Source: Escherichia phage 235Ecol030PP
Sequence record: PP355091.1
Reading direction: 5' to 3' (one strand)
Length of the DNA stretch: 64,000 nt
The notes beneath the pieces were generated by a model. That model saw only the letters and a program-made list of their open reading frames with translations. It was not told the origin of the DNA and did not search any database. A program made the translations under genes and the position numbers. Every line of letters starts with the position of its first letter. The stretch's first letter is position 1. Shown here one piece after another: positions 53,553 through 60,230 of the stretch.

Positions 53553-55321
53553 AAAAGCCACAAGAAATGCAAACGATGCGTAGAAAAGTTATTTCAGATA
53601 ATAAACCAACACAGGAAGCGGCTAAATCCGCTTCCAATACTTTATCTGGACTTAATGATATATCTACGAAATTGGATGATGCTCAAGCTGCTTCTGAATT
53701 AATAGCTCAAACTGTCGAAGAAAAATCGAATGAAATAGTTGGAGCAATTGGTAACGTAGAAAGCGCAGTGAGTGATACTACTGCCGGTTCTGAGTTAATT
53801 GCTGAAACTGTCGAAATTGGCAATAATATTAATAAAGAAATCGGTGAATCACTCGGAAGCAAATTAGATAAATTAACGAGTTTATTAGAACAAAAAATTC
53901 AGACAGCTGGAATTCAACAAACAGGAACCAGTTTAGCCACAGTTGAAAGCGCTATTCCTGTTAAAGTCGTTGAGGATGATACTGCTGAATCTGTGGGTCC
54001 TTTATTACCGGCTCCCGAAGCAGTTAATAATGATCCTGACGCTGATTTTTTCCCTACCCCTCAACCAGTTGAACCCAAACAAGAATCGCCAGAAGAAAAA
54101 CAGAAAAAAGAAGCATTTAACTTAAAATTATCTCAAGCTTTAGATAAATTAACAAAGACTGTTGATTTTGGATTTAAGAAATCCATTTCAATTAGTGATA
54201 AAATATCAAGCATGTTATTTAAGTACACCATAAGTGCTGCTATTGAAGCTGCTAAAATGACTGCAATGATATTGGCTGTTGTTGTTGGAATAGACCTTTT
54301 GATGGTTCATTTTAAATACTGGTCAGATAAATTTTCAAAAGCCTGGGATTTATTTAATACTGACTTTACTAAATTCTCTAGCGAAACCGGAACATGGGGT
54401 CCTTTATTACAGAGCATCTTTAGTTCTATTGATGAAATTAAAAAATTCTGGGAAGCGGGAGATTGGGGTGGATTGACAGTAGCTATTGTTGAAGGGCTTG
54501 GAAAGGTTCTTTATAATTTAGGAGAACTTATTCAATTAGGTATGGCTAAATTATCTGCTGCAATTCTTCGAGTCATTCCTGGCATGAAGGATACTGCTGA
54601 TGAAGTAGAAGGAAGAGCACTAGAAAATTTCCAAAATTCTACTGGAGCATCTCTCAATAAAGAAGACCAGGAAAAAGTTGCAAATTATCAAGATAAACGA
54701 ATGAACGGAGACCTTGGTCCGATAGCAAAAGGATTAGATAAAATTGCTAATTGGAAAACTCGTGCATCTAATTGGATTCGTGGTGTAGATAATAAAGAAG
54801 CACTAACTACCGACGAAGAGCGTGCAGCAGAAGAAGAAAAATTAAAGCAGCTTTCACCGGAAGAAAGAAAAAATGCTTTAATGAAGGCTAATGAAGCCCG
54901 TGCCGCAATGATTCGCTTTGAAAAATATGCTGATTCAGCTGATATGAGTAAAGACTCAACGGTTAAATCAGTTGAAACTGCCTATGAAGACCTTAAAAAA
55001 CGGATGGATGACCCGGATTTAAACAATTCACCGGCAGTTAAAAAAGAACTTGCTGCTAGATTTTCTAAAATTGATGCTACTTATCAAGAGCTCAAGAAAA
55101 ATCAGCCTAATGCCAAACCTGAAACTTCTGCTAAATCGCCAGAAGCGAAACAGGTCCAGGTTATTGAAAAGAACAAAGCACAGCAAGCTCCTGTTCAGCA
55201 AGCATCTCCTTCAATCAATAATACTAATAATGTTATTAAGAAAAATACTGTCGTTCATAATATGACACCCGTAACGAGCACAACTGCTCCTGGTGTATTT
55301 GGCGCGACTGGAGTTAATTAA
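53549..55321 (+). CDS. 29: gp29 tail tape measure
   Basis: 590 aa, position match. Confidence 0.9.
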   Translation: MKKPQEMQTMRRKVISDNKPTQEAAKSASNTLSGLNDISTKLDDAQAASELIAQTVEEKSNEIVGAIGNVESAVSDTTAGSELIAETVEIGNNINKEIGESLGSKLDKLTSLLEQKIQTAGIQQTGTSLATVESAIPVKVVEDDTAESVGPLLPAPEAVNNDPDADFFPTPQPVEPKQESPEEKQKKEAFNLKLSQALDKLTKTVDFGFKKSISISDKISSMLFKYTISAAIEAAKMTAMILAVVVGIDLLMVHFKYWSDKFSKAWDLFNTDFTKFSSETGTWGPLLQSIFSSIDEIKKFWEAGDWGGLTVAIVEGLGKVLYNLGELIQLGMAKLSAAILRVIPGMKDTADEVEGRALENFQNSTGASLNKEDQEKVANYQDKRMNGDLGPIAKGLDKIANWKTRASNWIRGVDNKEALTTDEERAAEEEKLKQLSPEERKNALMKANEARAAMIRFEKYADSADMSKDSTVKSVETAYEDLKKRMDDPDLNNSPAVKKELAARFSKIDATYQELKKNQPNAKPETSAKSPEAKQVQVIEKNKAQQAPVQQASPSINNTNNVIKKNTVVHNMTPVTSTTAPGVFGATGVN

Positions 55322-56424: not shown

Positions 56425-57389
56425 TGTATTCTTTAGAGGAATTTAATAATCAAGCAATAAACGCAGATTTCCAACGTAATAATATGTTTAGCTGCGTTTT
56501 TGCAACAACTCCATCAACTAAAAGCTCTTCGTTGATAAGTTCAATTAGCAACTTTTCTTATAATAACTTGGGCCTAAATTCAAATTGGTTAGGATTAACT
56601 CAAGGTGATATTAATCAGGGAATTACCACGCTAATTACAGCTGGCACACAAAAACTGATAAGAAAATCAAGGGTTAGTAAATATCTTATTGGTGCCATGA
56701 GTCAACGCACAGTTCAAAGTTTATTAGGCTCATTTACAGTTGGTACATATTTAATTGACTTCTTTAACATGGCATATAACTCATCTGGATTGATGATATA
56801 CTCTGTAAAAATGCCAGAGAATAGATTATCCTATGAAACTGACTGGAACTATAATTCTCCTAATATTCGTATAACTGGGAGAGAATTAGACCCTTTGGTT
56901 ATTTCATTTAGAATGGATTCAGAAGCTTGTAACTATCGTGCAATGCAAGACTGGGTTAACGCTGTTCAAGACCCAGTAACTGGACTGCGTGCTTTGCCAC
57001 AAGATGTCGAGGCAGATATTCAGGTTAATCTTCATTCTCGTAATGGATTGCCTCATACTGCGGTGATGTTCACCGGATGCATTCCAATATCAGTGAGCGC
57101 TCCTGAGCTATCATATGATGGAGATAACCAAATAACTACATTTGATGTTACTTTTGCGTACAGAGTGATGCAGGCTGGAGCAGTTGATAGGCAAGCTGCG
57201 CTTGAATGGCTTGAATCTGCTGCTATAAATGGTATTCAAAGCGTTCTCGGAAATAGTGGAGGTGTTACTGGACTATCTAATTCGCTTTCACGACTCAGTA
57301 GATTAGGTGGAACTGCAGGAAGCATTTCAAACATTAATACTATGACAGGAATTGTCAATTCGCAAAGTAAAATATTAGGAGCAATATAA
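56424..57389 (+). CDS. 54: gp54 baseplate tail-tube initiator
   Basis: 321 aa, position match. Confidence 0.9.
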   Translation: MYSLEEFNNQAINADFQRNNMFSCVFATTPSTKSSSLISSISNFSYNNLGLNSNWLGLTQGDINQGITTLITAGTQKLIRKSRVSKYLIGAMSQRTVQSLLGSFTVGTYLIDFFNMAYNSSGLMIYSVKMPENRLSYETDWNYNSPNIRITGRELDPLVISFRMDSEACNYRAMQDWVNAVQDPVTGLRALPQDVEADIQVNLHSRNGLPHTAVMFTGCIPISVSAPELSYDGDNQITTFDVTFAYRVMQAGAVDRQAALEWLESAAINGIQSVLGNSGGVTGLSNSLSRLSRLGGTAGSISNINTMTGIVNSQSKILGAI

Positions 57390-57393
57390 CAAT

Positions 57394-57411
57394 GGGGACC
57401 TTTCGGTCCCC
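57394..57411. terminator. bidirectional terminator between gene 54 (+) and the 57418..57708 gene (-)
   Basis: GGGGACC-TTTC-GGTCCCC followed by T-rich tract. Confidence 0.65.
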
Positions 57412-57417
57412 ATATTT

Positions 57418-57708
57418 TTATTTACGGAATGAAATGAAAGCAGCAACTGAAGCAACTAAACTGTCTTCAATATAAACTTCAATTTTTACCGGAGCTTCTG
57501 ACTCAAATTTACCTGTTACTACACCCTGAAAAATACTTTCAGTCTGTTCTGGCTTTGAAAAATTTTCAGAAGGAAAAATTCCAAACTTTTTATCTGTTCC
57601 GAAAATTTTGATAAATTCATCATAAACCGCTTCGTTAAAAGCATTATCAGCAGGAATAACGCCTTCAACTACAAGTTCTTGACCTAAAAAGCGTAAAGAA
57701 GATTTCAT
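57418..57708 (-). CDS. hypothetical protein (alt.-3-like)
   Basis: 96 aa, ATG 57708 with AGGAAC RBS. Confidence 0.6.
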   Translation of the reverse strand: MKSSLRFLGQELVVEGVIPADNAFNEAVYDEFIKIFGTDKKFGIFPSENFSKPEQTESIFQGVVTGKFESEAPVKIEVYIEDSLVASVAAFISFRK

Positions 57709-57739
57709 TTTGTGTTCCTCATGTTATGTCAGTAAGACT

Positions 57740-57769
57740 ACTATAACACAACACGAGGGACTTGTAAAC
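57740..57769 (-). promoter_or_regulatory. early sigma70-type promoter
   Basis: minus strand GTTTAC (fwd 57764-57769), 18-nt spacer, TATAGT (fwd 57740-57745). Confidence 0.4.
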
Positions 57770-57939
57770 TACATTTTGAACTTTTTAGTACGCGTAATAG
57801 GCATGCGTCGATTTTATACTGTTTCATTGTTTGAAGAGCAGTATCAAAACAGCATTAATGACACCAATTGGATTTCCACCCAAGTTTTTAAGCTTAACTA
57901 ATGATAGTTTCTCATTAACACCTATCATTACGATATGCA

Positions 57940-58125
57940 TCATTTTGTCGCCTGGTTTAACGTTTTATCTGTATCACCGCCAGAGGTGTATGTACAAAAT
58001 CTAAATCCAGGAAGCACGCTTTCTTCGCCGGCTTGAATAGCAAAAATTTGAGGTATTTTATGCTTAGGATTTAAGTTAACAACCGGCGCCGAAGCGCCGT
58101 CAAATAATTATGTAATAAGTTCCAT
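57940..58125 (-). pseudogene. decayed partial duplicate of the alt 5' end
   Basis: minus strand reads ATG GAA CTT ATT ACA TAA then in frame LFDGASAPVVNLNPKHKIPQIFAIQAGEESVLPGFRFCTYTSGGDTDKTLNQATK stop; alignable with alt codons 1-65. Confidence 0.6.
58084..58099 (-). terminator. GC stem-loop downstream of alt, inside the alt-remnant
   Basis: CGGCGC-CGAA-GCGCCG; no U-tract. Confidence 0.35.
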
Positions 58126-58128
58126 GAT

Positions 58129-60177
58129 TTATCCTTGAACGAACTTGTAAGGCATGTTTGCAATATCTATGCAAGACGCAATAATTCCAAGAGATGATTC
58201 TACTTTCTGTTTAACATTTGATGAAACAAATGATGCAAAGTCAACTCTATCTTCTATATCACCTGTCATTGTAACCAATTCACCAGTTTCCATTAAATGG
58301 TCTCCGTCATAGATTACCGATTCGGTGAGTTCTTCTGTGGTCATAACTTCAGCTTGAATAAGCTTGTTGTTAGTTCTAACTGTTCCATCGTTGTAAGATG
58401 CATCGGTTATTTTATTAACTTTGACCATTAATCCACGTGGCAAAATGACTTCCATTTCATTTGAAGGCGCTAAACTTCCACCGGGTAAAACAACATTGAC
58501 CTTATCAGCCCCAGTAATAACCCATCCAATTCCAACTAAATTATCGCTAGAATTTACTAGTCCTTCATCAGTTTTATCAATAGAAACACTTAGACGCTTT
58601 TCGTCTGGTAAAACACCTATAGATGAATCAGTCATCCAAGTACCAAAAATATTTGGATATAATGATGTTGACACAAAGTTTCTAAAATAAAAAACTCGAT
58701 TTTTTACCATTGCTTCATATATTGAAGGTAACATTCGTTGTGAACGATACAAAGTAATACCTTTTGGTAATCGTTCACCATTTTTAAAGGCTGAATCTAA
58801 ATTATCAATGGCTTGTTCTATTTCAGGTGCTGTTAAAATACTTGTACGCTCATCTGGATTATATAATCCCAAAAGAGCATTATTTATGTCTACATATCCT
58901 GAACCTACATATTCACGAATTCCGCGTTTTTGCGCTGGCGTGTATTTAGATGAATCTTTATTTTCGACTATAGGATGTAATGACCATCCAGCGGTAAGAG
59001 CATATCCACGTAATTCTCTTCGAATAATCTTTGTTTTTATTGCATTCCAAGAATTTTGTACTAACTCATTTGCAGCATCTTGGTTTAAATGCGAATGTCT
59101 GTTAATATTTCTTTCAAACCAGGCACCTTTATATTTTTCTAAAGTATCATCGACGATAGAAGCAATAGTTTCTAAAGTTTTTATTGAAGTAATAGATTCT
59201 TTTCGTAATTTTTCTAAAGCTTTATTTTTTATTTCTGCATTAATAATGGATTCTTTATCTTCAGGAATTATAGAAGCTTCTCTGAATGCCATCCCAGCTG
59301 TAACACTGCTAAGAGCATTCTCTAGTGCAAATCCTGAAGTAGAAATTACCGTTAATTCATTAGAATCAGAAATTAAAGGCGCGTCCGCTGGTTTATTTAA
59401 TTCTGCCGCTGAAGCCTCAAATTTTTGAAACATCGGTGTTTCAAATCTAGAAGATTCCAATGACTGACTTTGTGCAATTGCTCTACGGGAAATTTTAACT
59501 TTAACGATTACAGCTTGGTCAGAACGTTTATCATTTTCTTGCGCAATAGATGCTGCAATTGCCTCATTTTTAGTTACTTGGGCTCCAGTATCTTTATTGA
59601 TATAAACATCACCGACCTTCGATTCAACTTTAGTAAAGAGCTCGGTACTAATTTCCGGAACTCCTGGAATGTCTTCTAGTGATACATTTTTGCGATGTAT
59701 AAGAATATATGCATACTTTTTATCATAATCCCAGAGTTCCTTAAGAAGGACGTATCTGCCACCTGAACGACTACGGATAAGTCTATCAGCAATAACTTGA
59801 ATTTGTCGAGCTTGACCAGCGGTTTTAGACTTAAGAATACGAAGCATACAGGCATCAATTTTATACTGACGCATCGTTTGCATTGCAACAGTAAAAACTG
59901 AATTGATATAATTAATTGGGCTTGGACCAAGACCTTTCAATTTAGCAATTGAACCTTTAGCGGTTAATGTAAAAGGAACAATATGCATCATTTTATCGCC
60001 CATCTTTAAATCACGATTAGTATCACCTCCAGATGTATAGGTACATAAACGAAAGCCTGGTTGTTCAATTGCGTCATCAACATGAACTGAAAAAATTTGC
60101 GGTATTTTCTTCTTTGGATTTAAGTTTGTAATCGGAAGAGTAGTATCTTCGTCAAATAATTCTGTAATTAGTTCCAT
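58129..60177 (-). CDS. alt: Alt ADP-ribosyltransferase (packaged, injected)
   Basis: 682 aa from second Met (MELITELFDEDTTLPITNL...); track ORF starts one codon earlier at 60180. Confidence 0.93.
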   Translation of the reverse strand: MELITELFDEDTTLPITNLNPKKKIPQIFSVHVDDAIEQPGFRLCTYTSGGDTNRDLKMGDKMMHIVPFTLTAKGSIAKLKGLGPSPINYINSVFTVAMQTMRQYKIDACMLRILKSKTAGQARQIQVIADRLIRSRSGGRYVLLKELWDYDKKYAYILIHRKNVSLEDIPGVPEISTELFTKVESKVGDVYINKDTGAQVTKNEAIAASIAQENDKRSDQAVIVKVKISRRAIAQSQSLESSRFETPMFQKFEASAAELNKPADAPLISDSNELTVISTSGFALENALSSVTAGMAFREASIIPEDKESIINAEIKNKALEKLRKESITSIKTLETIASIVDDTLEKYKGAWFERNINRHSHLNQDAANELVQNSWNAIKTKIIRRELRGYALTAGWSLHPIVENKDSSKYTPAQKRGIREYVGSGYVDINNALLGLYNPDERTSILTAPEIEQAIDNLDSAFKNGERLPKGITLYRSQRMLPSIYEAMVKNRVFYFRNFVSTSLYPNIFGTWMTDSSIGVLPDEKRLSVSIDKTDEGLVNSSDNLVGIGWVITGADKVNVVLPGGSLAPSNEMEVILPRGLMVKVNKITDASYNDGTVRTNNKLIQAEVMTTEELTESVIYDGDHLMETGELVTMTGDIEDRVDFASFVSSNVKQKVESSLGIIASCIDIANMPYKFVQG

Positions 60178-60202
60178 CATATCCTCTCTAGTGTGTTTAT
60201 TC

Positions 60203-60210
60203 TATTTATA
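60203..60210 (-). promoter_or_regulatory. late promoter TATAAATA upstream of alt
   Basis: fwd TATTTATA, about 26 nt upstream of alt ATG. Confidence 0.6.
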
Positions 60211-60218
60211 AAATTAAA

Positions 60219-60230
60219 GGCCCGAAGGCC
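60219..60230 (-). terminator. rho-independent terminator after the 60232..60420 gene
   Basis: minus RNA GGCC-UUCG-GGCC followed by UUUAAUUUU. Confidence 0.6.

Follow-up and report, generated by a model that had tools for sequence, protein, structure and literature searches.

A very probable alt pseudogene beside alt in a T4-type phage, traced to a second alt gene with a large internal deletion between 9-bp repeats

What is the short minus-strand sequence that lies between alt and alt.-3 in T4-type phages, and from which gene does it come? We analyzed this locus in a T4-type Tequatrovirus segment of Escherichia phage 235Ecol030PP (PP355091.1), using a stretch of 64,000 nt that we call the window. 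The order alt, remnant, alt.-3, gp54 is the same as in T4, and the remnant is on the alt strand; neighboring genes are gp48 and gp54 on the plus strand and alt.-3, alt, alt.1, and the DNA ligase gp30 on the minus strand. The T4 RefSeq record annotates the same stretch as two ORFs, alt.-1 (61 aa) and alt.-2 (67 aa), with notes stating that together they are a duplication of the first part of gene alt with a stop codon introduced. Nolan et al. 2006 (PMC1524935) likewise list alt.-1 and alt.-2 as a paralogous duplication of alt, and they record extra alt copies elsewhere, 44RR ORF187c at full length and ORF188c and RB49 ORF183c in part. The 44RR and RB49 duplications are the same kind of event, an additional full or partial alt beside alt, but they belong to different lineages and are likened here by description. 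Our literature search for a published account of an intact T2-type paralog as the source of alt.-1 and alt.-2 found only that report, which notes the paralogy.

The element in the window is the already annotated alt.-1/alt.-2 of T4 in a further degraded form, and as such it is already known and represents no new kind of system. T4 alt.-1 (NP_049810) and alt.-2 (NP_049809) occupy the same position and have the same deletion junction, A-run frameshift, hairpin, and promoter; the window differs from T4 in that codon 6 is TAA rather than GAA and that a T-run is one base shorter, which takes alt.-2 from 67 to 39 aa. When 57380-58180 (801 bases) was used as a query, 502 phage records matched at a minimum identity of 90%, 90 of them across the whole length, and T4 (AF158101) was 97.4% identical over 801 nt. 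Most records matched only the right half of the query, which consists of alt.-3 and about 50 nt. The additions made by the present analysis are modest: it identifies the parent gene, defines exactly the 1,699-bp deletion between repeats, and orders the later lesions. The features discussed below are collected in Table 1.

Table 1. Features of the region from alt to alt.-3, with positions counted from the first base of the window.
Feature	Positions	Strand	Description
alt (resident)	58129..60180	-	682/683 aa; 99% identical to T4 Alt; ADPrib_exo_Tox at aa 374-614
alt_2 remnant, whole (very probable pseudogene)	57769..58125	-	Codons 1-116 fused, in a different frame, to the 6 terminal codons and the original TAG (57771-57769); equals T4 alt.-1 plus alt.-2
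Remnant start and premature stop	58108..58125	-	ATG at 58125-58123 with upstream Shine-Dalgarno AAGGA; TAA at codon 6, 58110-58108
Hairpin CGGCGC-UUCG-GCGCCG	58084..58099	-	6-bp G+C stem, UUCG tetraloop; native alt_2 coding sequence, aa 9-15 DGASAPV
A-run	57963..57966	-	4 A, 5 in intact alt_2; 1-nt deletion in 15/16 sequences, absent in FL44
T-run	57846..57849	-	4 T, 5 in T4 and intact alt_2; second 1-nt deletion, in 4/16 sequences (window, PD112, IME537, and CE1 only)
Deletion junction	57780..57788	-	One kept copy of the 9-bp direct repeat CTAAAAAGT
Early sigma-70-type promoter of alt.-3	57740..57768	-	TTTACA-17-TATAGT, 10/12 match plus TG extension; begins right after the original alt_2 stop
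alt.-3	57418..57708	-	96 aa, DUF5498; intact downstream neighbor that fixes the right-hand boundary of the remnant and lies outside it

The first-pass annotation, made from the letters of the window, had described 57940-58128 as a decayed duplicate of the alt 5′ end and as the remnant of a tandem alt paralog. The reading on which it was founded, ATG GAA CTT ATT ACA TAA on the minus strand after the alt stop, is present at 58125-58108, following the alt TAA at 58131-58129. Local nucleotide alignment of 57700-58180 with 59750-60230, both read on the minus strand, gave 152 identical positions in 199 (76%) and a score of 110, whereas 200 shuffled sequences gave a mean score of 21.2 (sd 2.3) with a maximum of 29. 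Homology to the alt 5′ end is thus real and well above background, but it does not end at 57940. In the multiple and block alignments it extends as far as about 57789 (Alt residue ~116), beyond which 57788-57769 aligns with the final codons of the paralog. The sequence is also alignable to Alt residues 7-65, as had been proposed, although not in one frame: with one base missing from the A-run (57966-57963), the reading goes out of frame past GGDT(D/N) and meets a TGA at 57942-57940, the point at which the earlier interval stopped. Once the frame is repaired, the Alt-type N-terminal module is evident, and over 116 aa the protein is 60% identical to resident Alt and 95% identical to the N terminus of T2 alt_2. 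Resident Alt, the counterpart of the packaged RNA-polymerase ADP-ribosyltransferase gpAlt of T4, shares with the remnant the segments MELITELFD..., NLNPK.KIPQIF, PGFR.CTYTSGGDT, and QTM.QYKIDAC. The two are merely paralogous, and the enzyme domain is absent from the remnant.

An intact second alt-like gene occupies the same position, between alt and alt.-3, in T2 (locus L005, 3463-5520), vB_SsoM_113 (annotated "alt_2"), and KMB42, and the proposal of a tandem paralog is borne out by these relatives. The second Alt-like ADP-ribosyltransferase of T2 is YP_010073850; T6, vB_SsoM_113, and KMB42 carry its counterpart, and this gene is the parent of the remnant. Intact alt_2, annotated as Alt-like or alt_2, begins 3 nt past the alt stop and measures 2,058 nt (685 aa). 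It is 44-45% identical to Alt overall, and in 60-column windows the identity is 60-77% over the first ~240 alignment columns and 17-48% beyond column 240. In T2 alt_2, the catalytic PF03496 domain (ADPrib_exo_Tox) spans aa 416-620, within the part deleted from the window. This domain is absent from the remnant, and even its most intact ORF, a 128-aa frame in FL44, has no Pfam match. Two-piece matches in ESh33 and F13076 had raised the possibility of a ~530-bp insertion in alt_2, which we rejected; alt_2 is of normal length there (2,058 nt), and the extra piece is a cross-match to alt_1.

Aligned with intact alt_2 from KMB42, vB_SsoM_113, and T2, the remnant falls into four blocks, each 92-98% identical, which are separated by two gaps of 1 nt and one of 1,699 nt. 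The last block, 57788-57690, comprises the final alt_2 codons, the TAG stop, and the downstream sequence. Remnant and intact gene therefore have in common the start 3 nt past the alt stop, the first 116 codons including DGASAPV, and the last codons with a stop that abuts the alt.-3 promoter, whereas the window is without the central 1,699 bp, PF03496 domain included, and is interrupted by one nonsense codon and two frameshifts. Because the blocks represent both the 5′ and the 3′ end of alt_2, the remnant is an internally deleted copy of this old, diverged paralog and not a copy of the 5′ end of the resident alt.

In intact alt_2, two copies of CTAAAAAGT lie 1,699 bp apart; the left copy encodes L114-K-S116, and the right copy falls in the last codons, S-K-K-F-K-M-stop. 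The repeat is found at both breakpoints of the intact gene in T2 and KMB42, and in vB_SsoM_113 the left copy has one mismatch. The window retains a single copy at 57788-57780, so the locus has the signature of a direct-repeat deletion. As 1,699 equals 3 × 566 + 1, the deletion is out of frame, and the T4 alt.-2 ORF consequently passes over the old stop, runs into the alt.-3 promoter beyond it, and terminates at 57743-57741. The deletion took the catalytic domain and spared the early promoter of alt.-3, at whose position the vB_EcoM_Lutter record also annotates a promoter.

The segment deleted from the window is near-complete in 402 phage records, including T2 and T6. For the junction, a 48-mer drawn across it was found in 89 phage records, with one occurrence per record. 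The intact tandem pair thus predominates, and we infer that the T4-type remnant is a minority state derived from it. This distribution fits the earlier suggestion that injected ADP-ribosyltransferases are gained and lost at this locus.

The following history would account for these observations. The ancestor would have carried alt and the diverged alt_2 (685 aa) as tandem late genes for two capsid-packaged ADP-ribosyltransferases, as most Tequatrovirus phages do. In the T4-type lineage, 1,699 bp between the two 9-bp repeats would then have been lost, probably through replication slippage or illegitimate recombination at the microhomology, which are established routes of deletion formation in T4. 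Such an event would remove codons 117-679 with the whole catalytic domain, join the ends out of frame, and leave the alt.-3 promoter in place. Decay would have followed through the 1-nt loss in the A-run that splits alt.-1 from alt.-2, a change of codon 6 from GAA to TAA, and, in the sublineage of the window, the 1-nt loss in the T-run. At the end of this series, the retained start site of the window would yield a peptide of at most five residues, and the alt.-2 equivalent would be cut to 39 aa.

The lesions were compared in 16 T4-type sequences, namely the window and 15 other loci, with 17 sequences in the alignment overall. The junction is common to all 16, and the disabling lesions differ between them. 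At the A-run deletion the frame is split into the T4 ORFs alt.-1 and alt.-2, whose stop and start overlap as ATGA (stop 57942-57940, start 57943-57941). Codon 6 is TAA in 11 of the 16, the window included; T4, TB004, G8, Lv5cm, and FL44 keep GAA, which is also the codon in T2. With the additional T-run deletion, the alt.-2-equivalent ORF of the window is 39 aa (57824-57943), and the only ORFs left in the remnant are this one and one of five codons, in place of the 61- and 67-aa pair of T4. Further lesions are a 7-nt duplication in HY03, an in-frame 9-nt deletion in F1, and a changed stop codon in ACG-C40. The annotated Alt-like CDS beside the HY03 remnant (locus L009, 1-126) is only 645 nt long (54637-55281), and the resident alt of that phage may be fragmented or mis-called.

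FL44, which has the junction and no A-run frameshift, reads as a single ORF of 128 aa (locus L017, 156-542), and its 5′ part has T2-like alleles. In the decay series it has the place of an intermediate state. It may be one that was reached early, it may be a recombinant, or the deletion may have arisen a second time, independently, at the same repeat of 9 bp. At the level of sequence, one common junction combined with disabling lesions that differ, and in part nest, gives the picture of a decaying pseudogene. Together, the parent gene, the junction, and the lesions make it very probable that 58125-57769 is a nonfunctional pseudogene, derived from an internally deleted alt_2 that then decayed stepwise.

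Some pieces of the remnant are nonetheless open reading frames in some phages. The 61-aa alt.-1 is open in T4, G8, Lv5cm, and TB004, and the 67-aa alt.-2 is retained in most; judging by the frames, small peptides may be expressed from one or the other in those phages. Among the polymorphic sites of the T4-type remnants (57741-58125), 13 of 18, a small count, are at third codon positions of the alt_2 frame. At face value, this bias suggests purifying selection, and the remnant may be weakly constrained. Roughly half of the alleles concerned are also found in the few intact alt_2 genes sampled, again in small numbers, so inheritance from, or recombination with, the functional pool suffices to explain the bias, and exchange with intact alt_2 genes is its likely cause. 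An alternative is that the remnant is not neutral: the 5′ piece of alt_2, with its Shine–Dalgarno sequence, start codon, and invariant UUCG hairpin, would be kept as a 3′ cis element acting in alt mRNA stability or in translation termination and reinitiation, or, where alt.-1 is open, as in T4, as a packaged and injected peptide with the capsid-targeting N terminus of Alt. Were this so, the third-position bias would reflect real constraint. We regard it as very unlikely.

The purely cis-acting form of that idea centers on the GC hairpin ~30 nt past the alt stop. According to the first-pass annotation, this hairpin had replaced the segment corresponding to Alt residues ~9-16. The hairpin is real, but it is native coding sequence rather than a product of decay: intact alt_2 proteins read MELITELFDGASAPVVNLNPK..., in which the hairpin encodes GASAP. 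It is identical in all 16 remnants and in the three intact genes examined, and a 67-nt segment containing it matches 481 records at no less than 90% identity, 479 of these at no less than 95%. T4 transcripts are known to contain C(UUCG)G hairpins, which reportedly occur in T4 intercistronic regions. The hairpin might accordingly serve as a 3′ stabilizer, processing barrier, or weak terminator for alt, with the 3′ end of the remnant serving as the alt.-3 promoter and the coding content being irrelevant. The stem is stable (it contributes a centroid structure of -11.2 kcal/mol) and invariant across the 17 aligned sequences, and the promoter at 57768-57740 has survived the deletion. The same hairpin is equally conserved inside the intact alt_2 coding sequence, however, and its conservation therefore needs no new role. 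Apart from the local hairpin, the fold of the 101-nt context is no more stable than shuffled sequences (z = -0.76). A terminator scan did not score the hairpin, which is followed not by a T-run but by GGTTGTTAAC, so the candidate role as terminator of alt transcription is unsupported. A permissive Rfam scan of 57300-58400 returned two weak, chance-level matches, both outside the remnant. Retention for a cis role would also leave ~300 nt between hairpin and promoter unexplained, and we hold it to be quite improbable.

A separate possibility is that, in this lineage, only a stretch of ~350 bp from the beginning of the resident alt was duplicated de novo in tandem and then diverged. This reading agrees with the wording of the T4 note, with the title of the first-pass annotation, and with the clear homology to the alt 5′ end. 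The remnant, however, is only 76% identical in nucleotides and 60% in protein to the resident gene, but 92-98% identical per block to the 5′ end of full-length T2-type alt_2. Moreover, the last 20 nt of the remnant match the 3′ end of alt_2 and not alt, and the junction coincides with a 9-bp repeat that lies within alt_2. The block alignment and the breakpoint repeats effectively refute such a duplication, which we consider very improbable.

Least credible of all is that alt.-1 and alt.-2 are new small genes, for instance for a packaged N-terminal Alt fragment with the capsid-targeting and prohead-protease signal MELITE/L, and that the window shows sequencing errors or strain-specific knock-outs, for although both ORFs are open in T4, G8, and Lv5cm, the start codon and Shine–Dalgarno sequence are kept, and polymorphism is biased to third positions, TAA stands at codon 6 in 11 of 16 sampled genomes, the alt.-2 frame is independently disrupted in five of 16 (the T-run in four, the 7-nt duplication in HY03), the recurrence of these lesions in independently sequenced phages means that they are not one-off errors, and the tail of the ORF beyond the junction results from reading on in the wrong frame into a promoter. 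Two plus-strand ORFs overlap the region (63 aa at 57710-57901 and 57 aa at 57831-58004), and we found no support for either.

With the remnant read as a decayed alt_2, the "hypothetical proteins" alt.-1 and alt.-2 that have been propagated from T4 into many phage records would be pseudogene fragments, a point of little importance beyond annotation. T2, T6, and most relatives still encode this paralogous injected ADP-ribosyltransferase, which the model phage T4 would have lost, and this calls for caution when T4 is taken to stand for the effector repertoire of T-even phages. The locus is also a clean case, found in nature, of a gene that lost the sequence between 9-bp repeats and then decayed in steps.

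The resident alt itself varies among these phages. Compared with T2 alt_1 (locus L005, 1366-3459), resident Alt (58129-60180, minus strand) shows a mosaic pattern: identity is 100% over the first 180 alignment columns and 98% over the next 60, only 25-68% in the middle part and the ART domain, and again 83-97% at the C terminus. Phages with the same remnant have resident alt genes of 2,049, 2,088, and 2,094 nt. This mosaicism and length variation suggest modular exchange of the effector part.

Upstream of alt, the minus strand carries a C(UUCG)G hairpin terminator, TAAAGGCC-TTCG-GGCCTTTA, with a T-run (60234-60215), directly followed by the T4 late-promoter motif TATAAATA (60210-60203); a terminator and a promoter are annotated at these positions in the Lutter record. 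On the other side of the remnant, alt.-3 (57418-57708, minus strand) is a full-length DUF5498 member (E = 1.4e-64) with its own early promoter, and it is conserved beside either intact alt_2 or the remnant. Between the convergent alt.-3 and gp54, a perfect hairpin with a 9-bp stem, ATGGGGACC-TTTC-GGTCCCCAT, lies at 57392-57413 with a T-run on the plus strand. It is probably a shared or bidirectional terminator, and the G8 and Lutter records annotate a terminator at this hairpin.
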